In this document: positions 10,880-58,529 of the stretch, one piece after another
Numbering within the stretch: the first letter of the stretch is position 1
Layout of the letters: each line of letters begins with the position of its first letter
Assembly (NCBI GenBank): GCA_001724265.1
Contig: MEDY01000169.1
Span: forward strand, 1 to 64,000
Length of the DNA: 64,000 nucleotides
Reading direction: 5' to 3'
Source of the DNA: Rhizaria sp. SCN 62-66
Lineage: Eukaryota
Position numbers and translations under genes: made by a program
The notes under the pieces: generated by a model
The model's database searches: none
Told to the model about the DNA's origin: nothing
The model's input: the letters and a program-made list of their open reading frames with translations, nothing else

Positions 10880-13800
10880 TTAGAGCATCCTGATAGTGCC
10901 CGACGCACCAGTGTTTTCCGTGTTTACGCTGGCCACCGAAGTGAGGTCATCGTGCCCCATAGACTCCCCAGCCCCGCCAGCTCCCAGGGTATTCAAACTG
11001 GCACTGGTACTGACACGCAGAGAGAGGATCTCGCCGGTGCCAGTGCCAGTGCTCGCGCCCGAGAAGGCTGACGGCACAGGCGCCAGAAGCCCGCTGTGCC
11101 CGCTGTAGCCGCTGTAAACGCTGTGGCTGTTGTATCCGCTCCCACTCTACATATTAGTGTTAAGCGCCTACAGAGAGTTCCCATCACTGTTAACAGAAGC
11201 ACCACCACCACCAAAGTCGCCGCCAGCGATGCCATCGTTGCCGTCCCCAGCCGCGCCACCGCCGGCGCCGCTGCCGTTGCCGTTAGCGCCGGCGCCGCCG
11301 TTGCCGAGGCCGAGCGTGTCGAGCATGTCGAGGCACCAGTTGTTCTTCTCGACCCAGACGTAGTAGCGCGCCATCTGCAGCGGAGTCATGACGCCGGAGA
11401 AGAGACGGTCCATCAGCAAGTTAAGCCGCGTCTGGTGCTCGAGCACATCGTTGCGCGCGGACGCGATCGTCTGGCACAGCCTGTGGTTGTGATAAGAAAT
11501 AGGTGAAGAATAACATGAAAGTCGCATTAAAAGTGTAAACGTGAGGTGAAAATGTGGTGTTTGACAACATATATGTTTAACATAAAATAGGGTTGAGTTC
11601 AGCGGATATAAAAGGCATACTAAATCGATGCCTTTTCAGTGATGATTCCATTGTCGCCTTCTTTCGTATGTGTTTGTCTTTAATGAAGTGACACAGCAAG
11701 GTAATGAGTGGTTAGTTTAACGTACCTCGTGAGCTCCGCGCGCTCGCTCCTGAGCGCGCCGCGGATGCTGTCGAGCTCCGCCAGTTGCGCCAGAGAGAGC
11801 CCGACCTCGGTGCACATGAGCGTGTACCACAGAGAGGAACTCGTGGTCGGAGCCTCGCCGAAGGTGTCGCTCTGGTCGATGCCCCACAGAGCGAACTTGG
11901 TCGCGAGGTCCGGGGTGGCGACCGAGAGCACGCGGGTGAAGGCGCCGTCGGTGAACGCCTGCGGCTCGCGGGCCTGGACCAGCACGCTCTGCATGGCAAG
12001 GGTCAGCTGCTGGGTCTGCACGTCGTCGAGAGCGGTCGTGGCGCTGATCTCGACAATGAACGCGAGCTGCTCCTTCAGAGACACCAGACTGCACAAGCAA
12101 GCAGGCAAGCAGGCAAGCAAGGGGAAACATGGCGAGAGCGAGTGGGTGATTTGGAAAAGAGAAGGAACAAAAGAGGAAAAAAAAAGAAGTTAGAAATTGG
12201 GGAAGTAAGAGACATGATAAGGCAAACACATTACGACCTATTCCTTTTGTTTTCGAGTGAGACATAAGAGCACGTACCGAGCTTCGTGCGCCTGGTGGCG
12301 CGCGGTCTCGAGCTGGCTCCAGGCCTGCACAGACTCGAGCTCAAAGCCCGGAGGCACAGCACTGCCGCTGCCGCCGCTGCCCGCAAAGCCGCCGCCCGCG
12401 CCGTTGCCACCACCGCCGCCGCCACCGTAGCCGCCGCCGCTGCCATCTCCGCCGCCGCCGTTGCCAGCCGCCGCGGCCGCCGCCGTGGCCGCCGCGGCCG
12501 TCGCGTTGGCCGCGGCGACGGCGTTGTTGGCATGGTTCAGCTGCGCGCGCATGTCCTCCAGCCGGGCAGACATGCGCTTGACCTTCTCCTCGAGATCCTT
12601 GACGTACATCTTCTTGCGGCGGCGGGAGGCGCGCGCCAGCTCGGCCTTGCGCGCAAGACGGAGCTTCGCCTTTTCGTCGGGCGTCATGCCCGCAGTCTCG
12701 GCCTCGTCGTCGAGGTCGATGCCGTCGAGTCCGCCCAGATCTAAATCGTCGTCCTCGCCCATGCTGTCAGCACCGCTGCCGCCGCCGCCGCCCCCGCCAT
12801 AGTAGCCGCCGCTGCCGCCACCGCCGCCGGAGCCGTAGCCCAGGTTGGGGGAGCCGTAACCAGGATTACTAGCAGCGGCGGCGGCGGCGGCCGCGGCGGC
12901 GGAGGAGGCGGCCGCGGCGGCTGCTGCCCCGCTGTTGCGGCGACCAACCTGAGTGAAGCGAAAAGGGAAATTCAAGGGATATAACACAGTGAGATAAAAA
13001 ACGAAAAACTAGATGTTCATGCTCTTTAAGTAAATATACAGTCACTAGTGATCACACAAACCCAACTCGCCTGCAATCTGACTAGTTTGAACATTGTTGA
13101 CAATAGATCTGCGTCTGCATAGAGACGTCGCGTACCTGTGGCGGGGCAGGCGAGCCGCGGCGCGACGAGGGGCCCGAGCCGCTCGCCCCGGCCTGGCCCT
13201 GCGACTGCAGATGCGAGTGCGGGTTGATGAGTTGGCTGGCCGAGGCGCCCAGCAGCACGGGCGGCGCCAGGTGCATCGCGTTGAGGCCAAGCGCCATGCT
13301 GCCGCCTAGACAGGAAGCAGAAACAAGAAAAAGCGAAATGCGGACAGAGTACACAATAAGCTCATACAACAAGATGACAAAAGACGATGATAGATCGCGA
13401 AGATTTCAAGAACAAACATAACACATGACACTGCAATAAGTATATAAAACAACAAACAAGAACATCAAGAGAGCGTATACGCGCGATATCGCGCCAAATG
13501 TAAATAAATAGAACGCACCTGGACTCTGGCTGCCATCGTGATACTGCCCCGTCCCGCCGCCCGCCGCCGACGACGACGCCGCGTTGCTCGAGGCCAGCGA
13601 GGACCTCGTGGTGCGGCCAGACCGCGTCTGCGCGTAGGGCGACGTCCCGCCCGCCGCCGCCCCTGCCCCAGTACTACTGCCTCCGGCCGCACCAGCGGCG
13701 GCGGCCGCAGCAACACCGCGAGTGCCTGCACTGCCGCCGGCGCTGCCGCCGTTGGTGGTGTTGTTTGAGAACGGCGACGAGGACCGTGGCAGGGCGTAGG

Positions 13801-15169
13801 GCGAGTTGTGCTGCGCGCCGTGCCGCGCGGGCGACGAGGACCGCGACGTAGAGGGCCGCATCGCGCCGCCACCGCTGCTGCCGGGACGGGGAACCGCGTT
13901 GGCGGCGACGGCGGCGGCAGTGGCGTCGTACTGCTGCTGGTAATGCTGCTGCTGCTGCTGATGTTGATGCTGCTGTTGCTGCTGCAGTGCGAACGCCTGC
14001 TGCTGCTGGTGGTAGGAGGAGAGTGCGCCGTTGAGCATCGCGTTGCCGGTGGCGGCGCTGCCACCGGGGCTGTTGCTCGTGCCCATGATGGCCCCCGCCC
14101 CCGTACTATGGGGCGAGGTGCCCGCGCTCACGATCCCGAACCCCGAGTGACCGTGGGCCGCAGAGGCCCCCGTGCCGAGGGAGCGTCCGCCCAGGGAGCC
14201 GACACTGCTGCCCGCTGCGGTGCCGGGGACGCTACTGCCGGCCACGGCGGCCGCGGCGGCGGCGGCGGCCGCGGCGGCCGAGGCGGGCGACGACGACATG
14301 AGCAACTGGGACCGGATCGACTGCAGATGCTGCTGCGCGGCGTGGGCGTGACTAGCGTGGCCGCCGCCGCCGACATTGGCGTTGGCGGTGGCCGTGGCGG
14401 CGGCGGCGGAGGAGTAGAGGAACGAATGCGCGGCCGACGGGCTGATGCCGCTCACCGGCGGTGGCGGCGCGTGAACGTGACCGTGGCTATGACCGTGGAC
14501 GCTAGTGCCGTAGGGGGGCGACACGCCCATCGGGACGCCGCCGCCGCCGCCACCGCCGTTGCGCTGGCCTTGCGAGTGACCGTGAGCAGGGTGACCGTGG
14601 CCGTGAGCGTGGTGGTAGACGGAGCCCGGAGGCAGGCCCGCGCCCGCGCCGCCGGCGCCGCCGGTGAGGCTGTGCATGGACCTAGGCAGCGGGTCCGCCG
14701 AGAGCTCGCTATGATGGCCGTGGTGACCGTGGGCGTGATGGCCGTGGTGACCGTGGGCGCCGGCACCGACAGCGCCGGCTCCGGCGGCGGCGGCGGCAGA
14801 GGGACCCGAGAGGGCGAAGGTCAGGTCGCCGTGGCCGAGCGGCAAAGGAGGATACTGGCCAAACCCTCCAGCACCGGCGCCGCCTGCGACGCCGACACCA
14901 GAGGCGGAGGTGGCGGCTGTGAGCTGCGCGCCGGAGCCGTTGGGGACGGCGGCGGCTGCGGCGGCGGCGGCGCGCATGGGGCCAAAGCCCTCGTCGGAGA
15001 TGGAGTGGGGGAAGGCGAGCATGTTGTCCATGCTGTTGCTTAGGGAGGCGTTGAGGCCGGAGAGCGGGTTGAGAGGGTTGACGCCGCCGCCACCGGAGGA
15101 CGCGTTGGGGGCGGGGCCGTTGAGCTCGGGCGAGGAGGGGAAGCCGCCCGTGGGGTAGAACGGGTTCAT
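10880..15169 (-). CDS. bZIP transcription factor, 5 exons; last exon contains two in-frame TAG codons (11170-11168, 11149-11147) and ends at TAA 10882-10880
   Basis: Exons 15169-13519, 13305-13136, 12948-12278, 12088-11726 and 11480-10880 are phase-compatible. Basic/zipper region RLARKAELARASRRRKKMYVKDLEEKVKRMSARLEDM; helical C-terminal region ending MTPLQMARYYVWVEKN. Under the standard code the gene would end at 11168. Confidence 0.8.
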
Positions 15170-16163
15170 CGGACCGGAGTGGCAGGACGACGCTCGCTGT
15201 CGCGTGCTGGAAAAGTCTTCCTGAGATACGAAAGAGGACTTGGAGTTAGCGCGAGAGTGGGTGAGGCGCAAAAATAGCTCGTATGAGCTATAGATGAGCT
15301 GTAGAGAGGACAAATTGTAAAATGAAATAAAAGAAATGAGAGTTATGGAGAGTGAGAAAGAGGTTAGAAAGGAATGGATACGTCGCAAGGGGGAACGGGG
15401 TGTCGTCGGCCAGTCTTCGCGTGGCATTCGACAAATCACTCTAGGCGAGCGTGTGCCGTGCAATAGAGACACAGAGAGTCCAGATTTGAACATGTGGGGG
15501 GTGTTGAATATGGCAAGGCAGTTGCATAGAAAAGAACTCTTATTGCGGACGGTGAATAGCTCTAAGCGAGACGGAAGAAGCGCTGGACTGGGCGAGAGAA
15601 TAAGGCCTTGATCAAAATACGAATCGGCACACAATTCGCCACAATCGCCGTTGAGCGCCTAAAAACCCGGATCAGGGTACAACGCCAAGTCGCTTGTCGT
15701 TCTATAAACTTAAGTCTCCTTCACGGGCGCTACCATAAACACTAATTCCACGAAAAAGTACGGCCACGAAAAACCTCTCGTGTTGGTCAATCGAGAAAAT
15801 GAATTGGTTTTTTCGGTTCTACGAAGGTGGGGGTAAGAATCTAAAAACTGCTTCAACAAAGCGGAACTTGTGGCGTCGCAAAGATGTGGCTTTATCTTGG
15901 CTATTTTATCGTCATAGTATCAGAAGTTCAACTTTCTAGAATATATACCCTGTTTTATATTTTTATATACAACTATATTTCTTAAATTGGTGTTCCTATG
16001 GCACAAGACCCTTCCAAAGTACTCACAGAGTTGTTACTCCTCCCAGTCTGCTCACTCCTACTCTTTTACTTCATCACTCACGTATGGTATTCTTCCTTCC
16101 CATTGATTCCCCGCAGCTAGGTTTATCTTAACATATCATCTGTCTGTAGCGTTCCAGAAGACC

Positions 16164-18504
16164 ATGTCAAGGTATGTTTCATTGATCTACACGCCAGTTT
16201 CCCTTCCACCCCCCCTTCCCTAACTCGCCTTCACACCCAATCTCACTCACACTCTTCACACACGTCGTGTTTTCTGTCGCAACCATCGTAGTTCCTGGGA
16301 GGCGGCGGCGTTTCACCCGTCGCGCCCCGTCCAGCAGACTTCCGCGGGCCGCTTCTGGGCCACCAGCGCGCCGTGTCCCCTGCGCAACCGCGCAGTCATC
16401 TCGACAAACTCTTCTCTCAGCGTGAGCTCTTCCAACCCCCACTCAGCCAACGGAACGAACTCCGCGACAAGCTCGAACGCGGACACTGTTGCGCACCGGT
16501 ACGACCCGTTTTCCGCGGCGGCGCGCGGCGTGGAACCGTCCCCGCTGCTGGCGCGGCCGCAGACGCCGCCCGATGGAGAGCGCCGGCTCATGGCGCTGCT
16601 GCCGCTCACTCGCAGGCGCTTCCTGCAGCTCTCAACAGCAGCCACCGCAGCCACAATTAGCACGGGGACTGGCGTCGGCTCTCGCGGCAGCGCCCGCGGG
16701 AGTAGATCTGTTTCTGGCACCGCAAATGCCGCCAAAAACAGCGCTTTGGAACGGACTATAATGCCGAGTACGAGCTCTAAGCCCCAACGGCAACAAGCTA
16801 GCAGCGGCAGTGGCGTTGGCGGGAGTTATAACGCCCGGAACACGTGGGGTGGCGCTAGCAACGCGGCCGCCACGAGTCCTGCCGCCACGGGTGGGTTCAC
16901 TCGGTTCGCTCACCCCAATAACAACAACAATTACAACAACAACGGGCAGCAAAACAACCGCAGCTCCGGAAACAATAGGAACAGTGCTCATAATGCTGCT
17001 GGCGGGCCCTTGCAGCAGGGCTATGCGCGCTCCGCCAGTCCAGACAGGGGCGCTCTCGTGCTTCCGTTGTCATCGCGACCAATGTCGCTCAGCCAACGGC
17101 CCGCGACCTCGGCAGCTAACGACTCAGCATCAGCGTACAGCAGCATCGACAACGCCAGAGTTTACGGGCACTCTGCTGCTGGTGCGAGGGGGAGTCAACC
17201 TGAAGTGAGCAGGCGTCCTGGCACCAGCGCTGCCAGCATGGGTACTGGGAGCGTGGGTACTGGGAACAGCAGCGTGCCTGCGGGGCTCAAAAACGACTTC
17301 TCGTTTGTGTTTTACCCGGATGTTGTCGTTAGCCGCCGTCAAGCCGCGCAGTCGCAGCTCCACAACAACGCCAGCGCCGGCGTTAACGGCAACACTCAGT
17401 CACAGGTGCAGTGCCAAGCGCAAGCGCAGAAGGCGCAGGCACAGGTGCAGCAATCACTGACTGGGTTTAGCTCGACTCAGGTGGGGGGTTTCGCTGCGTA
17501 TAACAGCGGCAACAACAACAATGATAATCATGTAAGTGCTCCGCAAAGTAGTGCACGTGCTGGCACAACACTGACATCACGTTCACAACTCTTTGCCAAC
17601 GCGGCCAATATCGACCGCAGCACAGATATGAGTCCCCATCATGCGACGACTGTCACCTTCGCTCACGCCGACATGACCGCTACCCCCACTGGCGCCGCGA
17701 TCGGTGCGAGCCTTAACCCCGGCGCCGGCGCCGGCGCTGCTCAGAGCGGCAATAGCGTAATTAACGGTGATATTGCCGCCTGTGGCGAAAGCAGGCGCTG
17801 GGAGCTGGCTCCAGGTGCCCCAGCTTCTCAGATTGCGAACTTAGGCCGCAGCTGGGAGGCGGTGGCGAAGGAGCGTGTCATGGTCCCGTCTAAGGGTGTG
17901 TGGCAACAGGCTAAGCAGGACTTGATCGCGCGCACGGCAGCGAAGCAAACCAATAACAACAACGGCTTCAATAACGCGGACGCTGACAGCCGAAATGCTT
18001 ACGAGATTGACCCGACTCATTGCAACAACAATGTTGAGGCTGATACCAGCAATGATGGCGACGCATCTAACATTGTAGCTGACGACGCTGTCGACACCGA
18101 GAACAATGGTGACAGTATTGGTGACTTTGGCAAGTATGCCAACAACGTCGAATTGCTGGAGCAACAGGGGGGGCAATTCGAGGAGGAGGGCGAAGACCAG
18201 ACCGTGAGCATCTTGGGTTCCAGTGGTTCTGGCGGTGGCTTTACTGACAACAACAACCCCAGCTTTATCTCTGCAAGCTCGTTCTACAACAACAGTGCTC
18301 CAGAAAGCAACCCGAACAGTGCCCGGAATGATACTTCTGCGCCAAATGCAAGTGCCAGCGCTAGCGCCGGTGTGAGCCGCGTGTTTTCCGATCCGCACAC
18401 CTCGTTGCCACCGCTAGTTATTGCATCGCCGTGCTTTGACACACATGGCACGGGGACTAACGCGGCCCATGTGTTACCGTTAGATGTAAATGCGTCTAGT
18501 ACAC

Positions 18505-18559
<55 letters not shown>

Positions 18560-21092
18560 TATCGATGTGAACCCGAACCCTAACGTGGAGAGCACCGGTG
18601 CGAACGATGGGAGTGGCAGTACGTTTGTGACTGCCCCCGTTGGCAAGCGTAGCAGAATCAGCAACATCGTCAGCTCGACCCCCCTCGCCGTCAATCTCAC
18701 TAGCACACCTCGCAACGACTGCAGCAGCGAGACCCCCGATGTAAATGTTGGCGCGAGCAATGTAAGTGCCCCCGCCGTGAGTATGGAGATGGTTTTCGCG
18801 CCTGCGTCGACTCCCATCGGCGCGAGCTACCACCACTTGAGGCACTACCACTCGGAGGCCACCAACAGCAACAGCAACAGCAACAGCAGTAGCAGCGGCA
18901 ACCTGAAAGTGCACGCGCAACAACAGCAGCAACAAGAGTCGTATTACCAGTTCAACGGCCCCACCAGTGCTAGCTCTGGCCCCGCTGCCGGCGCCGGTGC
19001 CGGTACAGGTGGCGCTCAGGCTCAGTTGCAGTCGCCGTCGCGGTCGCCGTCGCTGCTGCAAACGCGTTCGCAGTCCCAGTCGCAGGCTCCGTCACGCGAG
19101 CAGTCGCGCGTAGGTTCGCGTGTGGGGTCGCCGTCGCAGTCGCCCGCGCTGTCGCCCATGCAGCGGCGACTCCACTTCGCTGCGAACAATAACAATAACA
19201 ACAGCAACAGCAACAACAACAGCAGCTTCGCCAACAACAGCCATAGCAGCAGTCGTGGTTACTTGAGTCCTGTTAGCGCGAGCAACACGCCCGCGGTTGA
19301 CAATGCGAACCACTGTGCGAGCGCGAGCACCAGCGCCAGCGCTAGCAAGCGCAACAGCGTTGTTCTGCCCAGTGTGAATTTTGTTCGAGGTGAGAGCTTG
19401 CTCGCACTGCCACCGCAGGCGCAACCGCAGTTCACACAGACGCAGTCCCCGTCTCAAGTGCACGCACAGACGTACTTATATTCGCACTTACAGTTGCAGT
19501 CGCACTCGGCGAACCCGACTCCGTCGCCCTCGCCCGCGCCCGCGTCCTTTTTCACGAATCCCAACGCCAACTTCAGCAGTCTAAGTCCTCGCAACGCGAA
19601 CACCGCCAACGCAAGCGCTAACGCGGCCGTGAGTGCGGGTACAAGTGGGAATATGCCTGTGTTGAAGCACAGGAGCTCGCTCGCGGGAGGGTTGGTGCCA
19701 ACTCCCCGCGGCGCTGCCGCTGTCGCCGCCGCCGCCGTGTTGCTGACCGCCGCCGCCGCGGCCAACAACGCCGCGGCCGGCGCGAGCATTGTGAACAGCA
19801 ACATCAGCAGCAACCTCAGCAGCGGTGACAGCAGAAGCGACAGCGCGAGTGCGAGCGCGAATGTCGCGATGGGTGGCGGTGGTGGTATCTTGGCCCCGTC
19901 GGTGTCTGTGCTCTCGCAAAGACCGGCTGGGATCCTCGGGGGAAGTAATCCTTTTCCCCCGGGGACTAGCCACGCGCACCCGCTGAGCGGCGAGTCGCGG
20001 CCGGTCTCGCCGCATTTCGCGCTGGGACTGCGATCAGTCTCGCTGTCGCGGGGCCCGCTGGGGGGCCCGCTGCTGTCGCACTCGGGCTCGCAAGTCGTGC
20101 TGCATCCACAGCCGCACCCGCACCCGCAGGCGCAGCCACTGCAACAGCAGCCGCAGGGGCAGGCCCAGTCGCAGCTGCCGCAGGCGCAGTTGCAGGCGGC
20201 GCTGCAGCTGCAGGCGCATTCGCGGTCGCGCCGTGCCTCGCTTTTGCTCTCACCCTTTGCTGCGAGCCATAGCAATAACAATAACAGCAACAGCAACAGC
20301 ATGAACAAAGCTGAAAAGGTTGACAAAGACGGCTCGACTACTGCAAGCGCCCACATCATTCACGCAAGCATTGGCAACACCAGTGCTGCCAAGAGCAACT
20401 CAGACGACGCAAATACTGTCAACAGCGGCAGTCACGGCAAGAGTGATAGCAATAACAACAACAGCAGCGGCAGCAGTAGCAGCGGCGATCCGAATGATAA
20501 CAACGCTTTGCTGCTGCAACAGCGCCTCGCGGCGGCCGAAGCCCGCGCCGCCGCCGCTGAACACGCCCTTTTCAGCGCCGAAGCCGCCGCCGAGGCCGCC
20601 GAGGCCGCCGCCGTCGCCGCGGGCGCCGCCGCCGCCGCCGCCGAGGGCTCCGCGTCCGAGCTCACCGAGTCCGCGCTGGCGCTGCTGCGGTCCTACTCGG
20701 TCTCCGCGGCCGCCGACGGGGCGCGCGCGGCCGCGGCGGGAGCGAGGCGGGTCCGCGAAGCCGAGGCCGCAGCGGTCGCGGCGGCGGGGCGGGCGCAGGA
20801 CCTAGCGCTGCTCGTGGCCGCGGCGAGCGATAGTCTGGCCGTTAGCGAGGGCGAGCGCGAGCGGCTGCGCGGGGAGGCTGCGGCGGCGCGCGCGGCGGCG
20901 GCGGCGGCGGAGGGCGAGCGGGACGCGTGGGTGCACAAGTGGCAGGTGGGCGAGGATGGGGCGAAAGAAAGGGAACTTGCATTATCCGCGAAGCTTAAGG
21001 AGAGTGAGGAAGCGAGGAAGAAGCTTGAGTCCAGGCTCAGGGCCAAGAGAAACGTCACTGTCGAGGTGGACCAACTGCTGCAGTATACCTAA
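16164..21092 (+). CDS. Large low-complexity (N/S/Q/A) protein with C-terminal coiled coil; function unknown
   Basis: 1556-aa ORF 16422-21092 ends TAA and is open upstream to 16292. A putative micro-exon ATG TCA AG (16164-16171) joins in frame via a GTATGT...TAG intron (16172-16291). The C-terminus is Ala/Glu/Arg-rich and helical. The 5' end is uncertain. Confidence 0.65.
18507..18554 (+). repeat. (AGC)16 trinucleotide repeat (poly-Ser)
   Basis: Directly visible. Confidence 0.9.
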
Positions 21093-21856
21093 CTTTTTAA
21101 GAGCTTAATCGCTTGTCAGGAGTTGTGCGACTCATGTGGTGCACCAACACGTCAAGAAAGATTAGCAACGTTATTTAGATTAAGAATAGGATATCTGGTG
21201 AATACAAGGATGTTTTAATTTATTAGACGGAAACAAATTGTGACGTGCTGTGTTTAGTCTAAGATTAGATGTCGTTGTTGCAGTGTGGCTCGTCGAGTAA
21301 GTCAGTCAAGGCATGTTTATGTTGACTGTGCGAAGCGTGGATGTGAGAAAGATATTTTCACATGTGATTGCTCACGTGTTCATGAATTATTTTATTGTTG
21401 TTGTTGTTTTAACTGTACATGTATGTTCATTTCAGGCGATCGAAAAAATGAACGCCTAAATTCATACATATGTATACCGATTTGGAATGCCAAGTTAGAA
21501 AAAAAATGACCAAGTTGGAAATATAAGTGCTTTATTGGATAAAAAGATATTATTATAAATATCATAGTAGGTAACGTATGCTTTTTACAGATCAAAGCAA
21601 ATTAGAACTACAAATCATCGGTTAAAAATAAGTTAACACGCAATTTTAAGACCAAAACATGAGGAGAGAGCAAACTGTTATGAGCGACTTCTGAGCACAC
21701 AAAGCAACGTGAAATCAAAACAAAAGACGCAAAACCGCTATTATTCCAGGAGCACAGCTGTTCTCTTTCCATCTTTCACTGAAAATGACTGACGCTACAC
21801 TGCAGCTGTTTTGTCAATGTAAATGCAAGTAGTGTGCTGTTTGCTCGTTGTTGGTT

Positions 21857-22481: not shown

Positions 22482-22513
<32 letters not shown>

Positions 22514-26032: not shown

Positions 26033-26064
<32 letters not shown>

Positions 26065-28217
26065 GTAGAGTTCGCGTTGTTGCCGGCGACGGGGGCGGGG
26101 GCCGAGTTCCACTGCGGCCGCTTGGGACACACCGAGTCGAGGTCGCCGACCACGGCCTGCATCTCCCAGCTCCAGTCGCGCGACACCAGCAGCCTGAACA
26201 CGGCGGCGTAGCCGTTGCGTGCGTTGCCTGCGATCTCGGCCAGCGCCGCCGCCACCGCCGCCGAGCCCGCCACGCTGGAGCCGGCGACGACGGAGCTGAC
26301 CGAGGGCGCCAGAGAGCCGCCGCCGCCCCCGCCGCCGCCGCCGCCACCGCCGGTCACCGCGGCGGAGGCGGTGCTGGAAGAAAAGGTGCTATCGCTAAAG
26401 CTGAAGGACCCGCCGGAAGTTAGGCCGCCCCCGGAAGTCAAGCCGCCCCCGCCCGCGGCGCCCGCGCGATAACTGCCGAGCCCACTGCTATTGCTGTTGA
26501 TGAGGGTGCCGGAGAAAGAGCCGTTACCGCCAGCCGTCGCGCCCAGCGGGCCTGGGCCGGAGACGCCCGCAGCCTGGGCAAAGAGCGGCGCAAGGGCGGC
26601 GGCGACGGCGGCGGGGGCCAACGCCGCGGTGGCGCCCGTGCACGCGGGGTCGACCATTGGCAGCAGCAGCGCCAGGTCGAGCTGTGTCGCGGTCACCGCG
26701 AGGGCGGCGGCGGCGCTCACGTTGTTGCTGCTGCTACTGCTCAAACTCCCACCAGCCGTGCCGCCGAACACCGCGCTGCCGCCGCCGCCGGCGCTGAATG
26801 ACGCCCCTGACAGCGAAAGCGACCCATTGTAGCCGCCGCCGCCGCCACCGCCGGCGATGTTGTTGTTGCTGGCCCCGGGCATCGCGAGCGCGGGGCGCGG
26901 GTGGCCGTCCAGCTCCCCGGGCGCGAAGGTCCACGGCGGCGCCACGCAGGCCGCGGCCGGCGCGTCGACGATCGAGTGCAGCAGGATCACCGTGCGCGCT
27001 GCCCACAGGCGCGCCTCGGCGGCTTTGTCCTCGGCCAGGAGGCACACGCCGCCCAGCAGCTGGGCCAGAGCCACGTGCCGCGCCACAGACGCCGCCGCGC
27101 TCGCGCCGCCGCCGCCCGCCGCCGCCGCAGGAGCGTTGCTATTCGAGTTGGGGAGAGAGTTGGTGTCCGACTGCGAGGATTGCGTGGAGTTGGCGCTGGC
27201 TGCGGCGCTGAGCGTCGGCCGCCGCGACAGAAGCGAGCTGCCGCTGCGGCCCAGCCCCGGCGGGCCCCCACTGCCGCCGCCGCCGCCGCCGTCCCCGCTG
27301 CTGCTGTTGGCGCTGGCCGTAAGGGCCGAGGCGGTGGCGGCGTAGCCGGCCAGACTCAGTGGGTGCGGTAGATGCGCTAGAAGCATCTCGCCGTGGTGCA
27401 ACAGCACGCGGTAGAGCATCCACGACACGCCCGTCTGCTTGCCCGGCGACTTAGGGTCCCGCGACTGCAGCAGGAGCGGCAGAACGCGGCGCGGGGTCGA
27501 CCGCTCCGCGATGGCGGCGAGCGCTGCCGTTGTGTCGTCGGCCAGAAAGGCCTTGCTCGTTTCGGTCAGCTTGGCCAGCAAGGTGGGGACGAGGGTGGGC
27601 AGTTCCGAGTCGGCGCGTGGGCCGTAAACGGTGATCAGGCTGCGCAAAGTTACCAGGCCGGCTGAGGCGACCATGGACCGCAGGGAGCCTATACGAGAGG
27701 GGGGGGGGGGGGGGGGGGGGGGGAGGATGCACAGCGAAGTAGAGAAGCCAGACAGACATATGAGGGAATAAAACATTGATATATCCGTTGAAAAAGAAAT
27801 TATCTCGGTGTTGATATAATGTTATCGTATTAAGACAGCATATCAGCGAAATATATTCAAAGAGCAGAGCGGCGTACCGGCCGCGTTGAGCGCCACGGCG
27901 ATGCTTTGCTTGAGCACCGGCAGCACGACTGGCTTCGACGCCGTGTTGACGGCCGTGGCCTTGAGCCGCTGCATGATTTTAACCTGCACGCCCCACTGCG
28001 CGGCGGCGAAGGCGGCCAGCGCCGACTGCAGCTCAGGGGTCGCGCCGTAAGGAGGCTCGCTGGGCGCCTCCTTGGCGGCGGCGGCGGCGGCGTTAGACAG
28101 AGGCGTGCCGCCGCCGCCGCCGCCGCTGGAGGCGTCGCCTGAGCCGGCGGTGCCGTAGCGGCGGGCAGACGTCAGCGGGGTCATCGCCCCGCCCGCGGAG
28201 CGGCCGCGCGCGGACAT
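21857..28217 (-). CDS. TOG/HEAT-domain protein (CLASP- or crescerin/TOGARAM-like N-terminal TOG) with very long disordered C-terminus, 3 exons
   Basis: Exons 28217-27878, 27688-23266 and 23099-21857; ends TAA. HEAT-like helices with GSLRSMVASAGLVTL, LVPTLLAKLTETSKAFLADD and LAEDKAAEARLWA resemble the CLASP_N/TOG patterns LRS.V, SxxFI and D...EAR. Confidence 0.65.
27699..27723. repeat. G25 homopolymer (C25 on the sense strand) in intron 1 of the TOG gene, just upstream of the 3' splice site
   Basis: Directly visible; the acceptor AG is at 27690-27689. Confidence 0.85.
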
Positions 28218-33526: not shown

Positions 33527-34702
33527 TTAGATCATGTCCTGGTCTGCGTTGGGCGTGAGGATGATGTTGTCAATGAGGCGTGTGGTGTTGCTCTTAACGG
33601 CCACCGCCAGCATCACCGACCGGCCGCGCTTCACACAGTCAGCGCCGGCCCCTTTAGATCCGTCCTCCTTAGACGGGATGTCTGAGAGCTCGACCCCGGT
33701 GACGCAGTCGCTGAGAAAGACGTAGTCCAAGTGTTGGAAGGGGTACTTAGCCGCGGCCTCCTGAAGCGCCGCAGTAACAGCAGCCCTCACGCCACTCACG
33801 TCGACAACGTCACTCTCAGTCTCTGCAGTAATGCCCGTGTCGGTGTCGTTGGAGCGCGGCTGTAGCTGTTGTTGTTGCTTGAGTGCAGTGTGCCATGCCT
33901 CGCGCCCTTTGAGCAGCGCCTGGTAAATCACTGGTGCGGCCGCCCTCTCCGCCTCGCTAAGGTACACGTTGCGTGACGACATGGCGAGCCCGTCGCGCTC
34001 GCGGACCGTGGGGCAGATGGTGACCGTGAGCGGCATGTTAAGGTCGCGGACGAGCTTCTGCACCATGATGCTCTGGAGGCCGTCCTTTTGGCCGAAGAAG
34101 GCGCGGTCGGGCTGCACGATGTTGAACAGCTTCGTGACAACCGTACAGACGCCGCGGAAGAAGCCGGGGCGGCGCGTGCCTTCGCCCTTAAGATCGTCGG
34201 CACCCGCGGGGGTGACGAACATGGAGAAGTCATCGCTGTACATGGCGGCCGAGGTGGGGGCGAACACGGCGCTGGCGCCTGCGGCCGTCAGGCGCGCAAT
34301 GTCGCTGTCAAAGGTCTTGGGGTATGAGTCGAAGTCGTCGGTGGGCGCGAACTGGGTCGGGTTGATAAAGATGCTCACGATCTAGACAGCGTTTTGTGCG
34401 GAATGGGTGCGTTGGAGTTAAGTGAAGATTAGGGTCAGAGAAGTTTAGGGCTGTGTTTAAGGGGACATACGACATCAGATATAAATATAACATCACTTTC
34501 GGATAGAATCCAACTGCTTGTTTTGATAAAGTTCGATAATTTTACGTACGACGATATCTGTGGCCTTGGCTGCAGCTCGGGCGAGCGAGGCGTGTCCGTC
34601 GTGGATGGCACCCATCGTGGGGACAAAGCCAACGGTCTTGTTCTGCGCGCGCTGCGCTGCACGCCATTTGCGCACATCCTCAACAGTGCGAAGAATCTCC
34701 AT
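33527..34702 (-). CDS. panC: Pantoate--beta-alanine ligase (pantothenate synthetase), 2 exons
   Basis: Exons 34702-34550 and 34381-33527; ends TAA. Motifs VGFVPTMGAIHDGH, VSIFINPTQF, RPGFFRGVCTVVTKLFNIVQPD, FGQKD, DGLAMSSRN and TRLIDN. Confidence 0.95.
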
Positions 34703-48698: not shown

Positions 48699-49772
48699 TT
48701 AATACGTTTGAATTCCTTTTTTCCAGATTATGTTCTAGATATGCAACGACTGAGGCTGACTGTGGTCGCCACTATGCCAGCAGAAAACAACTTTGTTTTG
48801 TTTAACCAAGATATGAAGATCTGCATTTTACTATTTTGATTTACCACATTGAATTTTATGCTCTTGATAAAAATAAATTATTTGAGTCATTTGTGTTTTC
48901 CAAATTGTGCATAGTTAGACGGAGTTACTACGTTAGATATGCGCCAATTCGCTGCAGCTAGTGACCGAGCGGGTGGTTTCTGGGAGATATCTCATGGATA
49001 GCGGTTCAATTCGCTATTAATATTTTGTGGCATGAAACATCACCCCAGAAAAAAGTTTATGTCAGCTGCATATTATCACTCAAGTGACTGTTTTGATGTA
49101 GGTCTGGTTAAGTATTGTGTTTGGCGCGACACATCTTGCTTATTCGATTTCGATCTCGACGCGAGATCAGCCTTGGACTAACGTAAACTAGAGGGCGATC
49201 GGGTCACGGGGAAGAAACCTCATTTTCACGTTATTATCGCTCGGGAAAAAGAAGGTCAAATAATTTTCTTGAAACTAAAATTAGTATAGTTTACAATTTC
49301 ATTGAAAGTAGCCTCATTGACGATCAAATTTCCAGGGAAACTTGGAAAGAAAAATCCCCATTGCAGGATGCTCCTTCTTATCCAAACCCGTTACCCCATA
49401 CTAATCTTTAAGATATGCCCTGTTATCCGTCATTAGTTTCGGTTAACACTTTCTGCATGAGCTTTTCCGTATTAGATCTTTTAGTTCTTCAACTTTCATT
49501 TTCGCACACTTTGTTTTCACGGCGCTGGGTCTCTTCGTAACCATGTAATCCTACCCGATGTGCCCCTGTCTCCCCCTACCTACACCTTAGCATCCCCGCT
49601 CATCCCGTTTCGCCCCGCTTTTTCCCCTTTTTTTCACGCCACTGCTTTCTCGCCTCCGTAGTTTCGACTCTTTTTCCTATAGTTTCTCTTTCTTTTTTCT
49701 AAGTTGCGCGCCTGTCTCACAGAGATCCAAGCGCTCTCCTACGTGGGACCGCGCGTGCAGCCCCGCCCTGCA

Positions 49773-49933
49773 ATGGAGTCCGCTCAAAACCCCACCAGCG
49801 CGCACCGCATCGGAGCCTGCGCCGCCATGCCACTGTTTTTGTCCCCGCAGGGCGCTTCCCCACCGCTGCCGCCAAGCTGGAACCAATCGCGCGCCTCCCC
49901 CACCTACCTCGACTCTGGCGCCGCCGCCACAGG

Positions 49934-49968
<35 letters not shown>

Positions 49969-52900
49969 ATGCGTCCGCCACCGCGAACCCAGCCAGGCGG
50001 GCAATGGCGCTAACGTACTCGTTGTCGGCGCAGCAGGGACAGCAGCAGCAGCAGCAGCAACAGCAGCGACAGACTGTCGGGGCGGTGGCGCGGCCGCAGC
50101 CGGGAGCGTCGCCGTTATCTCTCATCTCGCTCTCTGCGATCACAAGCCCCGCTGACGGCAATACCGTTCTTAGTCCCGCCGCTAACCTGAACCTTAGCGG
50201 CGTGAGCACTGACAATAGCGGTGGCCTTATGTTGAGCCGGTCAATGACTGGCGGTCATTTGCCGACCAGCTCAACCTTAGCGTCAACAACAACAACAACA
50301 ACAGTTACGACCACCAGCACAAGCACAACAACTACAACGACGACGACAACGGGCACGAGCAGCAGCATGAACACAAGCTCTAGCTTTGGCAGCAGCAATA
50401 ACAGCATCAGTAACGCAATGACCGCAGCGGGCTCCGCCGTCGCCTCCCCGCCAAACGCCAGCTCTGGCGCTGGCACTGGCGCTGGCGCTGGCACTGGGGT
50501 TGGGGTTGTCGCTGGCTTCCGTCCTCAGATGCAGGCTCAGTCGCGGCCGCAGTCACGCCTGGCCTTTGCTGCCTCTGTGGCCGCTGTCCCGGCGCCCACC
50601 ATTTCCCTCGCGCCCAACACCAGCCTCGGCATCAGTGCGGCGATGCACCACGCGCGCATGGCCGCCGTGTCCCCACTGATGCCGCTCGCCAGCACGGCCA
50701 ATCTGGGCACATTCGGCGTCGGCATTATTGGCATCGGCGCCAGCGGCGGCGGCAGCAGCGGTGTGAACGGGTTCATCGGCAGGCTTAGCAACGGCGTGGG
50801 CATTAGTAACATGAGCAACAATCTCAACAGCAGCATCACTGGCATCAGCGGTGCGGGTGTCGGGGTGCGGACTGCTGCACCTAGCCCCTTTGAGCCGCAC
50901 AGCGGCGGCAACACTCGCGTTGTAAGCGGCCACGGCCACGGTCACTCAGCTGCTCACGGTCACTTGCTCGGCCTGTCAGTCCCCCGGACCAACGAGAAGG
51001 ACCGGCACCGCATCGTTAATGCGCACGCAATCGGCCACAGCGGCGGCGGTAGTGGCGGCGGCGGGGCCAACAGCAACAGCCTTAACAGCAGCATTATCAG
51101 CGGCAGTGGCGGTGGCGGTGGCGGTCCGAGCAGTGGGTTAGGCTAGGGGCTGGGGCAGGGCGGTGCCCTGATGCTGGCCGGGCTAGGCCCTATGTCAGGC
51201 TACGACGGCGCCTCGCCAGTGCCCCTACTGCACGCCAACCACCCAAGCGCAAGCGCAACCCACGCCCGCATGGCCCGCGGCTACAGCAGCAGGAACAGCA
51301 GTAGACGCAGCAGCACCAGCAGCGCCAACAACTCGAGTGACGGCAACAGCAACAGTCCCTTGAGGTCGCCGCCGTCGCCGCTGCCGCTGCCGCAGCCGCT
51401 GGAGCTGCCGCTGACCCTGCCGCTGCCGCCGGTGACGCAGGGGCAGACGCTGCTGCCGCTGATGTCGCTGACGCATCTGACGCGGTCCCAGTCGCTGATG
51501 CAGGCTCAAGCGCATTCCCAGCCGCAGTCGCACGCTCAGTCGCCGCAGACGCCGCGGTCGCCGCGCTCGCCGATGGCGAACACTGTTGTGCCTGACGCCA
51601 GCAGTAACAACAGCGGCGGCAACTGGCGCAACCAAAGCGGCCGCAGCCGTGAGAGTCAGCAGTACGATTGCAATAACTGCAGCAGCAACCGCGGAAGTAA
51701 CCACGCCGCTCGCAGCAACGGCACTGGAAACGGCTTTAGGTCGACCGCTGCCGCTGCTGCGGCCGCGGCTGCTGCCGCTTCGGCCACTGCAAACCACAAC
51801 GCGACTGGCATCGCGATGTACGTGCCTCCCCGCCCCAGCCACGTCCACGGCCACGGCCACGGCCGCGGCTCCGGGAGCAACCTTGCGGACGCGTTGGCGC
51901 ACGCGGGCGACGACGGCAGCGGCGGCATCCGGGCGAGAAGGCGTGTGTTTCCCATCAGCACCGCGGACAGCACCTCAAGCCACAGCAACAGCAACATCAA
52001 AGACGACGCGTCTGCCTCCTTTGATGCGATGGCGGCTACCCACGGGCACCAAGCAGTCTCGTTTGTGCCGTTCTGCGGGTTTGGTACCGCGGTGCGCGTT
52101 GGATCTGCGCTTATCGCGTCTGAGTTCTCGCCGTCTGGGAGCAAAGAGAGCGAAAACAACAGCACCAGCACTGGCAGTGGTAACAATAGCAATGAAAGTG
52201 ACAGCAACATTCATCTTAACGGCAATAGTCGCTCTAACAGTGACGACTTCGACTCGAATATTGTCCCACTTAATGGTATTGTAACCGCTGGCAACACGAT
52301 GAATATATTGAGCAGTGGCGGCAGTAGCGGAAGCAGCCGCAAACGCCGCAGCCGCAGTCGTCACAATCGCGGCGAAAACGCTGCTGCTGGTGCAAATACC
52401 ATATCTGGCAACGGCAATAACATCCGCGGCAATGCTAATAAGATCGTGAACAGCTCTAAGGCTGGCCGCGGTGGCAATACTCCTAGCCACAATCATAGCA
52501 AGAGCAAGGATAGTCCCCGGTCAGCGTTCAAACGCACCCGCAACATCGTCAACAAAAGCGGCGCCGATTCGTCACACGTCTTGCCAAGTAGCGTGCACAG
52601 TCAAGCTAACGGCGGGGGCATGCATTGGAATATGAACGGCAGCTCCCATACCCAGAGCAGCTGCAGCAGCACGGGCGCGAGCAGCAGCTTTGCATCCCAC
52701 TACGGCTTTACTTTGCTACACAGCACGAGCACCGCTATTGGCGTTAATGGGAACGATAGTATCCGTAATGCTGCGCACATTGCGTCGTCGCAGTCGATGC
52801 CGCGTCAGCCGAATCACCAGCTCTCCAACGGCGCAAACGGCAACTCGGGCAACGCTAACAATAGTATGCCGTTATCGTCGTCGCTCCCGTCGCACTACGG

Positions 52901-55900
52901 CCACGGTCATGGCGCCAGACCCGACTCTCGGTCGAGCACTGGCGCTGGCGCTGGCGCTGGCGCCGTTAAGGTGGGCGCACCAGTGCCGAGCTCCCCATCA
53001 TCGGCCTCTGCAGCCGCTGTTGCCGCCGCGTTTGCTACGGGCCGCACCGGTGGCCCCGCCGGCGCCGCAGCCGCAGCCGCCGCTAAGAGCGCCGCCGCAG
53101 CAGCAGCCGCCGCCGCGGTGAAGTCTACGAGCCCGCGCCGGCTGGTGCGCGCGATGACCCCCGGCGGCGGCGGCGCCTACAGCCCGGTTCACGCGCAGTA
53201 TGCGGAGGGGCGGGGGGTGCTGGGCCCGCGCGCGCTGCGGTTCGCCCACAGCAACAGCGGCCTCAACAGCAGCGGACACGGCACCAGCGGACACACGGAT
53301 GGCGACGGCAGTGGCAACGCTGGTAGCACCGGGCAGAGCTTCGGTCAAGGCTATACTGACACTGGTGCTTCGTTTTTTTGCAGCAGCAGCAACAGTCTTG
53401 GCGGTAACGCGACTGGTGACGAGCAGCAGTTTTTCTACGAGGACGACGACAGTGATGACGATGACGACAAGGACGGGGACGCCTTTGGGGACACGCTTGC
53501 TCTCGCCGCAGCTGCTGCAGCGGCCGCTGATGCACTCGCCGACAACGTCGCTGGCGTTGCCTATAGCCAGCCAGGAACAAACAATTTCGACACCGGTCTT
53601 GCTGCGGGACTCCATGACAACCTAAATTCTTGCAAAAACAAGGCCGGCAGCGCTGTCGCCAGTCCGGTGGCCGCACAGATTACGCAGGGGCGAGGCCGCA
53701 AGCGCAACAATAGTCCTTGCAAGCAGCAGCAGCAACAACAGCAGCTGCAGAATAAGCAAAGACTAGCTGGCAACAACGACGACGACGACGACGACAATGA
53801 CAAAGATGATGTTGTTGTGACCACACCCAAGCTTGGTGTGAAACGCAGCCGGAAAGCCGACAGTATCAGCATTTACAGCAATGGTGCCCTGAGCGGCAAC
53901 GCTCATGGTAGCCGCAAAGCTGCTGAATTGGTCCCTGGTACTGCCCCACAGCTGTCGTCCCAGTCATTCTCGTTCGCGCGGTCACGGCAGCGGCCGATGC
54001 CGGTGCCTGACCTCGACATCGCAGACTCGGAGATGCAGTCACATCTGCTACCGCCGCCGCAGCATCAGGCGTTGCTGCCCCCAATCGGGAGCTTGCCGTT
54101 CTCAGCCTCCGCGCCAGCCTCAGCAGCGGCGGCGGCTGCCGCGGCTGCAAGGGCCCCGGTCGCGGCCGCGCCGACGGGCGCGACGCCAGTCGCGGTCACG
54201 GGGAGCCCCGCGCGCAACACGGCGTTCCGGGCCACGGCAGCCGCGGGCGTGTCGCCGATGCTGCCGCTGGGAAATCTGCGCCTGCTGCAGCAGCAGCGGA
54301 AGCAGAAGCAGGAGATGGAGCAGCGGCAGCATGAGCTGCAGCGGCAGCAGCAGCAGTTGCAGCAGCAACATCAGCGGCTGGGTCAGGTTTTTCCTGTTAG
54401 CTACGAGCAGCACCGCGCTCCCGGCATCGGGGCTGGCGCCCAGACTGACCGGGACCGGTTACCCAGCATTGCTGAGACCGCCAACGCTGCCGTCACCGTT
54501 GCCGCCGCCGCCGCTGCTGCTGCCGCTGCGACTAATAGCAATAGTCGCGCCCCCGCGTTTGCATATGGCCACTCGTCGCCGCACAGTCGCTTTGACGCTA
54601 CTACTTCTACTACTACCCACAGTCAGTCCTCAGCTTCCGGGCAGTCTGCGGCCCCCAGTTTCCCGGGCACTGTTGCCCACGGTCACCTCAGCCACGCGAG
54701 CGCGTATGGCCACGTGCCCAACGCGGATAACCGGCATTCGGCTGCGCTCTCGGCCCCTACACACAAGCTTGGCGAGTCAAATGCGGCAGCCCACCCCGCC
54801 AACGCTACTGCCAACTCGCGATTTGAGATTATTAACCGTAATAGTGATGCCAACCCTGGCTTGAGCTGGAATGAAGGCGACAACGTGCAGGGCAATAGCT
54901 TTTCTAGCGTGAACACGAACAGTGACGTACCAAGCACTCCTAAGCGCGCAGGCAGGCCGCCCAAGAGCCTTAGTCACAAAGGCATGTTTGACAGTGACAG
55001 CGCGCTGGTCGGCGGTGCAGGTGCGAGCTTTCTAGCAAACATGCGGAGTTTGATTACTCGCAGGTTTTCTGGCGTAAATACCCCTGATAACAATTGTAAG
55101 AACAACGACTCAAACGCAAACCAGTGCAAGATTAGCAGCAATGCAGATGGTGGAAGCAACGGCGACAACAGGGGTCAACGTATTGATGTCGCAAACCTAA
55201 ACCCTGATTATGAAAGCAACGGTGGCAGCAACTATAGCCGCAACGACCGCGCAGCAACAGGCCGTGTAGATGCCGGCCTTAACGCCACGCTCGCAGCCAG
55301 GAGCAACGATTCTCCCGCACGTGTTGCCATCGTCAATGACGCGGCTAGCGCGGCCAACGGGCACGCTGGCCGTCTCCCCGCCCCGGTGCCGGCGCCGGGC
55401 GTCGCTGTCGTTGATTACGTCGGTGGCTCGAACACTGGCTTGAACACTGGCGGCGGGGCTGGCGCAGATAACGTGTCCTTTGACGTCGGCAGTCTCGTGC
55501 CAAAGCAGCGCAGAAAACGCGGCACTGTCAAGCCGCTCAATGCGGTGTCGGTTGCGCTCGCAGTTTCTGCTGCAGAGGCTGCCGCAGAGGCAGTCGCTGC
55601 GACTGGGGCCGCGGCAGCCGCTGAATCTGCTACAGCTGCTGCTGCCGCTGCTGCTGCTGCAAATCGTACTGTGGCTAAAATTGCTCCAACTGATTCGGCT
55701 GAATATGGTTCTGTATCTGGTCGTAGCAGCATACAGGGGCTACCGCCGCCTACGCCTGTTTCTGTGTCAAACCGCGCCAGCGCAAACGACGCCAGTCTAA
55801 GTACACGCGCGAATGTAAGCGCTAGCGTGGGCTTGCTGTCCCAGGTTGGCACGAGTATCAGCGCAGCTATCAGCCAAGGCGCTTTCTATAACCCCAGCCC

Positions 55901-58529
55901 GAGCCGCCACAGTGCAAATGCGTACGCTAACAGCCACAATGCGGGTATCGACAGCAACGATAGCGCAAGGGCGGCAAGCGCAACTGCTCTCCGTGATTGC
56001 GTCGATGCGTTGAGCTCTCACGCACTCCTGGATCTGGGCGACGGCACCGCAGCTCTGGCCCGCAGCCTGAGTAGCCGCAATGGCACGAGCCGAGCGGATA
56101 GCGACGGCAGCGGCGGCTCTGTGTTTTACCTTCAGGCCGAGGATGGCGACGATGCTAATGGCGATCTCAGCGAGACACACAGCGCCTCTCACCGCGAGCA
56201 GCTAGAGCGACAGAACCACTGTGTGTCCCGTGATCAGCAGCACTATTTGCTGCGTGGATCTTAGCAGTTGCAACGGCAACAGCAGCAAGAGCAGTTGCAA
56301 CAGGAACAGCAGCAAGAGCAGCTGCAGCAGCAGTTGCAGCGGCGGGCGCAGCAGCAGGTTCAGCTGCAGCTCCAACAGCAGTTCGACCAGCAGCAACAGC
56401 TCTTTGAGCAGCAGCAGCTCCAGCATCAGCAAGTTCAGCGCCAAATGCAGCAGCAGATTAAGCACTTGCAGAAGCTGCTTGAGGAGCAGCAAAAGCAGCA
56501 GCAGCTCCAGCAACAGCAGCAGCTGTTGCAACAGCAGCGTCAACCGCAGGTCGACTCGCGCCGCAGCAGTTACGGGACTAATAGCGACAACTCCGAGTAC
56601 GTAAACAGCAGTAACACAACTAGCTATCCTGTAACAAGCAGTAGCAGTAGCAGTAGCAGCGGTCGCAGCACGAGGGTTCCCAAGCGGATCAGCAGCTTAA
56701 ACTCCAGTCGCAACAGCAGTCCCAGTTACAACCACGCTCAAAACCACGCTGGTACCGTTGCCATCAGCGCTGCAGCTGCCGCGGCGATTGTTGCTGGCGT
56801 AAATAACGGCCAGTTTCAGCTCAACCACTACTCGCATCCGATCGCCGACTCCACAGACAGCAGCACTGTCGCCTCCGCAAGCGCGGTCTTGGCCGGCACG
56901 GCCCACGGGCACGCGACTCACCGGCGTATTAGGTCCTCTGGCGAGACTTATAAGCGCTCACACGGTCGGTCCCCAAGCCCCGCGCGCAGTCACAGTGACG
57001 ACCATGGTTACAATCACGGTCACGGCCCCAGCCATAGCCATGTTTCCCACAGTTAGCTGAGCCACGGACACTCTGCAGCTGCTCACGGCCACTCAAAGTT
57101 GAGTCTCACCTTACCAAGCTACGGCCAAGACGCTGCAAAGCACCGACAGCAGCAGCGCGACCAAGCTCGCCCCCGCGATCGCAGTGACCGGGACCGCGCT
57201 AGCGACTGCGACCGGGAGCATGCGAACGTGCGCGGCCGTAGCAACGACCGGGCCCACAGCCGCGGACACAGCCGGGCCCACAGTCGCGAGCTCGGGTCGG
57301 GCCACGGCCACGATGAACGCGAGCACGCAGACCGTGGGCGTAGTGACCGTGGCCGTGAGCGCGAACATCGTGAGAGTGGTAATCGCGGCCAGAGTCACGG
57401 TAACCTACAACTCCACCCTCACGCACAGGGCCTGACCCACAGTCATAGTTATAGCAACGCGTACAGCCACTCTGCTCACGACCACTCTCCCGCGCACTCT
57501 GGTGGCGCGAACGATAGGTCTCCGCCGGGCCTGCGCCTGCACCTGCGCGCGCACTCCTTGCACTCGCAAGTCCAGCCTGTGCCTCAGTCGCCCGCCTTGC
57601 TTCAGCCCGCTTTGCCGCAGCCCGCCTTTGCTGCGGGCACGTCGATCGCCACCGCCATCAGTGTCAGCTCTAGCCCGGACTCGCTCGACGGCGCCAGTGC
57701 CGCTCGGGAGAACAACACTGGCGGCGCGCCGGGCGCAAGCACCGTCAGCAACGCTGTTGGCACCCCGAGCCCTCGGTCACGCCACGGTACAAACAGCGGC
57801 AACATCATCAATCGCGGCGGCGAGAACCCACTCAGCGTGAACAACTCGAAGACTGATGCAAGCTCTCCCCGCCTAAGCGTGGGAAACAACACCACGGACA
57901 ACAATAATATCGGTGCCATCATCGCTGCCAGCCGTCGCCACACTGCGGCTCAGCTCAGCGCCATCGACCGCGATGATGATGGTGATCATCATGGTTATGC
58001 CAGAGCCGCCAATATCGGCTTAAACAGCGCTGGCAGCCCTCGCGCTCAGGACACAGCAGCGGCTGGCGGTGAGGAGACGACTGATGATGCGCAGTCCGAA
58101 GGCTCGCTGGCCTCAGCCCTCGCCGTGTTTCTAAGGCAGCGGCACGAGCAGGAGCTGCTGCAGCAGCGGCATCAGCGTGAAGCGCAGACCCTGTGGCAGA
58201 ACCTCACCAGTGCGATCGCGGCCGGCAACGTGGGGGCCGGCAGCATCACTCAGGCTCTCACGGCCACCAACAGCGGTGCTGCCACGGCGACTGCGGCGGC
58301 GCGTGCCACGGCGGCAACGTCGTCCTCGGCGGTGCCGTTTCAACTGACACCCGACGCAACCGCTGCGCTTGTAGCAGCTGCCGTTGCAATGTCGACTGCT
58401 AACAATGCGAATAGCGCTGCGATGCGCAATAGGGCTTCTGATATCGGCAGTGTGGGTGTCAATGGCAATGCTGGGAGTGGTTTTGCTCTCGATACCACGC
58501 GTATCAGCAAGCAGTCTCAGCATCGATAA
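49773..58529 (+). CDS. ~2900-aa low-complexity/disordered protein containing three in-frame TAG codons (51144, 56262, 57054); ends TAA
   Basis: ORF-track ORFs 49704-51146, 51171-56264, 56268-57056 and 57099-58529 share one frame and are separated only by single TAG codons. Composition is uniform, with no AT-rich intron between them. No domain recognised; the start is uncertain. Confidence 0.7.

Follow-up and report, generated by a model that had tools for sequence, protein, structure and literature searches.

The window analysed here, the 64,000 nucleotides of contig MEDY01000169.1 (positions 1 to 64,000, forward strand), contains 13 gene models, two of which, a large intronless gene and an unrelated bZIP gene, carry in-frame TAG triplets. 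On balance, the evidence leads us to read UAG in this organism as a rare and disfavoured glutamine (Gln) codon, with UAA and UGA as the only stops; that UAG has some sense meaning, whichever amino acid it specifies, appears quite likely. The original prediction had proposed the same code: its sense reading of UAG alongside UAA and UGA stops is supported by reciprocal codon swaps between samples and by purifying selection downstream of the TAGs, whilst the assignment to Gln stands only as likely. All five in-frame TAGs from which it started were recovered at the same coordinates, in frame and in identical sequence contexts, and are given below together with a sixth site that is TAG in other samples ((TAG) marks the codon in each context; X4, X5, X7 and X8 are metagenome runs):

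49773..58529, plus strand: large gene, intronless, 2,918 codons, low-complexity, three TAGs; ATG at 49773, TAA at 58529
51144..51146, plus strand: TAG 1, codon 458, in frame in the large gene, GLG(TAG)GLGQG
56262..56264, plus strand: TAG 2, codon 2164, in frame in the large gene, RGS(TAG)QLQRQQQ, opening a polyglutamine (polyQ) stretch
57054..57056, plus strand: TAG 3, codon 2428, SHS(TAG)LSHGH, polymorphic; CAG in X5, TAG in X4 and X8
57951..57953, plus strand: CAG (Gln), codon 2727, sixth TAG site; CAG in the window and X5, TAG in X4 and X7
58527..58529, plus strand: large-gene terminator TAA; coding score falls from +0.13 to -0.33, GC from 0.64 to 0.41
10880..15169, minus strand: five-exon bZIP gene, 1,151 codons, two TAGs in the non-conserved C-terminal tail; TAA at 10882-10880
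11168..11170, minus strand: bZIP-gene TAG, NSL(TAG)ALN, 55 codons past the final conserved Trp in the C-terminal domain
11147..11149, minus strand: bZIP-gene TAG, TNM(TAG)SGS, seven codons from the other bZIP TAG

In-frame TAGs and the sequence beyond them

Each of the 13 models could be closed using GT-AG introns, 22 in all (120-259 nt, median 183.5); their donor consensus GTACG is strong, being present in 18 of the 22, and their length range is narrow. Across the 16,380 sense codons of these genes TAG occurs five times and internal TAA or TGA not once, as had been claimed, so that TAA or TGA as a sense codon could be ruled out. Beside 555 CAG and 136 CAA codons, TAG makes up 5 of 696 Gln-type codons (0.7%), which agrees with its reported rarity. 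The genes terminate at TAA (seven) or TGA (six) and never at TAG, and a recount of the 11 TAG-free genes returned the earlier tally of five TAA and six TGA; if TAG is assumed to account for 20-30% of stops, the chance of finding none among 13 terminators is P=0.055-0.010. The frame of the large gene holds no internal TAA or TGA between 49773 and 58529 and remains open for 2,460 codons past TAG 1, where the other two frames contain 47 and 145 stops. In case of the bZIP gene, the next in-frame TAA or TGA lies 95 codons past the first TAG, compared to 4-69 codons beyond the true stop in the 11 TAG-free genes.

A three-periodic coding model, trained on the 11 TAG-free genes and applied with leave-one-out, gave in-frame scores past the TAGs of +0.14, +0.13 and +0.13 in the large gene and +0.08 in the bZIP gene, with the other two frames of these segments scoring +0.01 or lower; as reference, the range is +0.09 to +0.25 for true last coding stretches and -0.15 to -0.34 for the 11 true 3' flanks. 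Directly past TAA both TAG genes score -0.33, and GC content, which changes by at most 0.07 across each TAG, drops at all 13 terminators: composition breaks at TAA, not at TAG. The regions past the TAGs are, or were recently, coding; for translation at present, more than a coding score is needed. Hidden introns removing the TAGs were ruled out by intron-model scores, as the best model spanning any TAG (6.2) lies below all 22 real introns (7.6-18.7) and donor scores of TAG-removing models reach at most 1.7, versus at least 4.7 for real introns. The context of 56262 is NAGNAG-like. Separate tandem genes within the large frame were also ruled out, there being no non-coding composition between the segments.

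Variation between samples

The large gene is present in bioreactor and wastewater metagenomes (11 from seven studies, four containing at least half of its words; runs with small shares were excluded from the habitat evidence). Contigs from four of the 13 listed runs (X4, X5, X7 and X8; depth about 2-8, unphased) were compared over 49300-61100, and 40 of 108 variants were listed: 31 in the large gene, seven in the coding sequence of a metaxin-like gene and two upstream of the latter. Variants were classed site by site, with 2 of the 13 synonymous steps falling in doubly changed codons, and gaps in contig cover, including that at 56262, carry no evidential weight. The control gene is:

59218..60907, minus strand: metaxin-like gene, GST_C_6 match, ending in TGA

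Two reciprocal swaps were found, TAG to CAG at 57054 and CAG to TAG at 57951. TAG 57054 is kept in X4, where a contig bridges it, and in X8, where it lies 25 letters from a contig end, and is replaced by CAG in X5; the CAG at 57951 is kept in X5 and is TAG in X4 and X7, which come from two different studies. At 51144, an X8 contig (50840-51219) runs across the TAG without a single difference. The TAGs at 51144 and 57054 are thus not assembly errors; confirmation in a second run covers these two only, since the listed contigs miss 56262 and the bZIP gene lies outside the compared region. The 31 listed large-gene variants include no change to TAA or TGA, no other nonsense change and no TTG/TAG swap.

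Apart from the swaps, 26 changes lie downstream of TAG 1, and 13 of them are synonymous; random placement of the same base changes would give 7.7 (P=0.017), and the same test in the shifted frames returned 7 of 26 and 3 of 26. Amino-acid changes in this region are conservative (mean BLOSUM +0.38 versus -0.37, P=0.013), and the ratio of nonsynonymous to synonymous polymorphism (pN/pS) of the large gene is about 0.42 there. The synonymous excess was also observed below TAG 3 (12 of 22, 6.7 expected, P=0.012) and amongst X4-type variants, TAG 3 being common to X4 and the window (10 of 17, 4.9 expected, P=0.007); these tests overlap and form one line of evidence, not three. Given this excess, the region downstream of the TAGs looks translated. 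Three of the seven listed indels are clean: 3-nt insertions at 55235 and 55274, both in frame and in unique coding sequence, and a 1-nt insertion at 59677, within an intron. The other four fall in repeat pile-ups. Two of them form a +1/-1 pair; the remaining two, +2 and +1, are paired in X7, whereas for X4 the +2 alone is listed (depth 3 of 3,374).

Up to 52928, three listed pieces of X4 match the window exactly, whereas X4 differs by about 1-2% from 54638 on, and in X5 identical pieces alternate with pieces differing by 2.4%; a mosaic of this kind points to recombination, or to more than one allele or strain in the population. In X4 and X8, hundreds of further contigs map to a short Gly-Ala/Thr repeat in the large gene (50456-50500), which seems to be a motif common across the genes of the organism or its community. 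A repeat-pattern scan for stray contigs of the organism returned 10 genome loci and one viral locus; open reading frames (ORFs) were checked at 7 of these 11, and those listed are bacterial or phage.

Meaning of UAG and competing explanations

In the reading of UAG as Gln, UAG would first have been lost as a terminator; it would then be decoded by a tRNA-Gln with CUA anticodon, one base from tRNA-Gln(CUG), eRF1 recognition of UAG would be lost or weakened, and new TAGs would arise from CAG by C-to-T changes that are near-silent. UAG and UAA can split in meaning because CUA pairs with UAG and not with UAA, and the combined tRNA-CUA and eRF1 logic is that set out in passages of PMC5304391 and PMC11687900. 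No tRNA gene lies within the 64-kb window, and eRF1 is not among its 13 genes. A TTG:CTG-like ratio predicts about 115 TAGs compared to the five observed, which are more than 20-fold rarer, and GC content at third codon positions (GC3) is 0.68 around TAGs versus 0.78 around CAG, in line with lower codon bias: scarcity and low-bias location together thus point to UAG as a newly available codon, or as a poor codon under selection. The confinement of TAG to weakly constrained, disordered stretches would likewise fit a young change or poor decoding of UAG. It is possible, and we propose it tentatively, that a UAG-only stop-to-Gln change has been caught early, with the codon emptied as a terminator, its refilling only just begun and TAG segregating with CAG, in either direction between present-day strains, in a GC-rich rhizarian genome.

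A number of observations weigh against the Gln reading. No TAG lies in a conserved column or domain across the 13 genes, 13 terminators are a small sample, and with only 2 of the 13 genes containing them, the five TAGs are more clustered than even use predicts (P=0.046 when weighted by Gln share, P=0.020 by length). For the large gene, homologues were sought in one region, that spanning TAG 3, and no outside homologue was found; the sole match was the organism's own cluster, whose two members agree with the window and begin beyond the TAG. Plain decay of the two genes would yield TAG for 71% and 79% of new stops, of which 77% and 65% would come from Gln codons; a pattern of only TAG, arising from CAG, is therefore weak when taken alone, and the two Gln/TAG changes among 28 listed compare to 0.39 expected neutrally, which is borderline (P=0.055). 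As all seven listed coding variants of the metaxin-like control gene are synonymous, the large gene is under genuine but weak constraint, much weaker than the control, and the variants compared are 40 of 108, from unphased contigs of depth 2-8. X8, the run that carries TAG 51144, is a polyA run, and one of its contigs reaches 111 nt into an intron, so that it possibly represents DNA or pre-mRNA; none of the splice joints listed matches a window intron. The bZIP gene alone is compatible with a true stop, since its C-terminal domain is complete before the first TAG, the tail beyond is non-conserved and most homologues end soon after the domain, the tail falling short of the 55 residues to that TAG in 16 of 24. 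Lastly, the context argument first offered for Gln turned out to be weak: GLG(TAG)GLG is equally good with leucine (Leu), and an amino-acid context model over the five sites showed no preference for Gln (Q minus L = -0.63).

The strongest competitor is that UAG is a sense codon for an amino acid other than Gln. Leu is the most likely candidate, through a change either shared with the sainouroid rhizarian exLh or parallel to the one there. We regard this as unlikely, yet Leu is a live rival because the sole rhizarian nuclear case in print, described in passages of PMC5304391, is UAG=Leu in Filosa and the organism studied here is likely rhizarian. The first TAG context suits a Gly-Leu repeat, and compared with true Leu sets (mean -1.85, standard deviation 1.9) and true Gln sets (mean 3.1, standard deviation 3.1), the context score lies nearer to the former, although this model has poor power for Leu, gives its top sums to His, Tyr and Gly and favours Gln only at 56262. 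In addition, most new TAGs would stem from CAG in weakly constrained sequence whatever TAG means. What speaks for Gln over Leu is that both swaps are with CAG and none with TTG, that as Gln-Leu exchanges they would be non-conservative in a gene whose other changes are conservative, and that 56262 opens a polyQ run; in exLh, moreover, 71 transcripts contain 384 TAGs, of which many lie at conserved Leu according to the same passages, compared to none in conserved domains here.

An improbable explanation is that the standard code applies, the TAGs being nonsense mutations in a decaying or truncated large orphan gene and the bZIP gene ending at its first TAG, with an ex-coding tail as 3' untranslated region. 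Decay does predict mostly TAG from CAG, and the clustering of TAGs in two genes, the few terminators, the bZIP domain completed before the TAG and the short tails of its homologues all fit; the large gene is without a recognised domain, Pfam having found no family at cut-off; an AAA_23 match covering the polyQ stretch stays below it. The synonymous excess and conservative changes past the TAGs, seen also between types sharing TAG 3, are at odds with decay, as are 2,460 codons free of TAA, TGA or frameshift, insertions that stay in frame and composition that breaks at TAA instead of TAG. Several TAGs would furthermore be needed in each of two unrelated genes within one 64-kb window.

We consider it more improbable again that UAG is ambiguous or leaky, with partial eRF1 termination and a weak or near-cognate tRNA, being avoided as a terminator and tolerated in low-demand genes. 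The deficit of TAG relative to the TTG:CTG-like prediction, its location in regions of lower codon bias and its restriction to two genes are as such a codon would have it. A full-length product of the large gene would, however, require three to four serial read-throughs, yet its distal end is under selection. Programmed read-through usually involves one stop per gene, with CARYYA as a read-through motif; here three to four TAGs lie serially in one gene, the five sites differ with no shared leaky 3' context, and only 56262 resembles CARYYA. Finally, removal of the TAGs by assembly error, hidden introns or RNA editing is very improbable: although 56262 and the bZIP TAGs were seen in the window only, the former has a NAGNAG-like context and the polyA run contains intron sequence, TAG is present in other runs at 51144 and 57054, the new TAG appears in two runs of different studies, and no intron model comes within the range of real introns.

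Host lineage, neighbouring genes and known codes

The gene used for placing the organism was:

4642..7678, minus strand: PRP28/DDX23 gene, ending in TGA

This PRP28 helicase has one clear relative, the JGI protein P0001, at 68-71% identity. A quick tree comprised the window and 71 of 120 matches, and a careful tree 40 matches, redundant animals and several long branches being left out. In the latter, the window and P0001 fall in a 15-row clade with Paulinella chromatophora as sole named member (support 99/99). The next branches are Plasmodiophora and Retaria, and a split supported at 95/97 sets the 20 rows on the rhizarian side apart from 21 others. Forcing the window and P0001 outside Rhizaria was rejected in the approximately unbiased (AU) test (p=0.003, the group having been named after seeing the tree). 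Judged from this tree, which covers one gene, has long branches and holds no labelled alveolate or sainouroid, the organism is likely a rhizarian and probably a filose cercozoan. The original prediction held that it was neither a fornicate nor a typical ciliate: PRP28 excludes a fornicate, whilst a ciliate is excluded only indirectly, because there is no alveolate in the tree. The suggested independent origin of the code is supported by the placement in Rhizaria. Scanning metagenomes with the PRP28 exon alignment returned 19 loci of 33-46% identity and no close relative, and the WD40 gene was dropped as second marker, its matches being generic WD40 proteins and the top match not an orthologue.

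The identity of the bZIP gene comes from a Pfam bZIP_1 match (E=6e-5) that lies below cut-off. Its C-terminal domain has a motif like TPxQxAxxYxWVExNxW with no Pfam match, common to 24 homologues of which one is from Leptophrys, and the protein possibly represents an undescribed transcription-factor family. Leptophrys vorax, a rhizarian, is the sole taxon-named homologue in the eight bZIP-family clusters looked up. The ESM Atlas gave only sub-0.9 bacterial matches for a bZIP exon, and scans of viral and genome contigs with bZIP and COQ7 exons found no relative.

Family matches of the window genes are kinase, WD40, GST_C_6, INCENP, COQ7, EXS, pantoate ligase and PRP28; MPS1, metaxin, XPR1, TOG-like and pyroglutamyl peptidase are presumptive names. 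Nearly all window proteins, including the kinase, WD40, EXS and INCENP-like proteins, are inflated by long low-complexity Ala/Ser/Asn/Gly/Gln insertions, and P0001 has the same style of insertion. A pantoate-beta-alanine ligase gene (33527-34702, minus strand, PF02569) with introns is present in this protist, and a G run of more than 20 bases (27699-27722, plus strand), whose length may be unreliable, is a minus-strand polypyrimidine tract just before an acceptor. In public protein collections, P0125, P0150 and P0274 are products of the organism cut at, or starting after, TAGs because of standard-code gene calling; standard gene callers truncate such proteins, P0125 being an example.

Passages of PMC5304391 and PMC11687900 state that UAA and UAG nearly always change together and are split in few nuclear genomes, mostly of ciliates. 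The organism probably belongs with the UAG-only stop-to-Gln code of the Iotanema type, and its code is probably a new independent origin of this rare, already known code; the codon is used in an unusually sparse and polymorphic manner. If true, Rhizaria would have a second reported change of the nuclear code, and their first to Gln, as judged from open-access papers and bioRxiv, in which we found neither a rhizarian with UAG=Gln nor a report of segregating CAG/TAG sites. If the change has indeed been caught at an early stage, population data could reveal the path by which a codon is reassigned. The rarity and polymorphism of the codon make an old question testable, whether a stop is abandoned before its capture or passes through an ambiguous stage.

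Comparison with the fornicate Iotanema spirale, for which passages of PMC5304391 give UAG=Gln as probable with UAA and UGA as stops, reveals the same restriction of the change to UAG and UAG as the rarest Gln codon. In contrast to the rhizarian studied here, however, UAG reaches about 8% of Gln codons there versus 0.7% here, and it lies at conserved Gln columns and is accompanied by eRF1 T32G, whereas no TAG in the window falls in an alignable column; according to PMC9161772, a GTS-motif change tracks the code of Iotanema. The rhizarian exLh (Sainouroidea, Filosa; UAG=Leu in the same passages of PMC5304391) shares with our organism the supergroup and probably the broad clade, the reassignment of UAG only, UAA and UGA terminators and gene-class-dependent use, but its UAG is common and at conserved Leu, compared to very rare and swapping with CAG here; no labelled sainouroid was among the PRP28 matches looked up. 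The ciliates Hartmannula sinica, Trochilia petrani and Protocruzia tuzeti have the same predicted code table (UAG=Gln), according to passages of PMC11687900 that also give UAG=Leu in three uncultured ciliates, yet UAG makes up 18.5-31.8% of their Gln codons and occurs in 78-84% of genes in H. sinica and T. petrani, versus 2 of 13 here. Whilst the described cases use the new codon widely, the present species, which recurs in wastewater and reactor samples, uses it very rarely and polymorphically, which suggests that conserved-column screens could miss codes used so sparsely.

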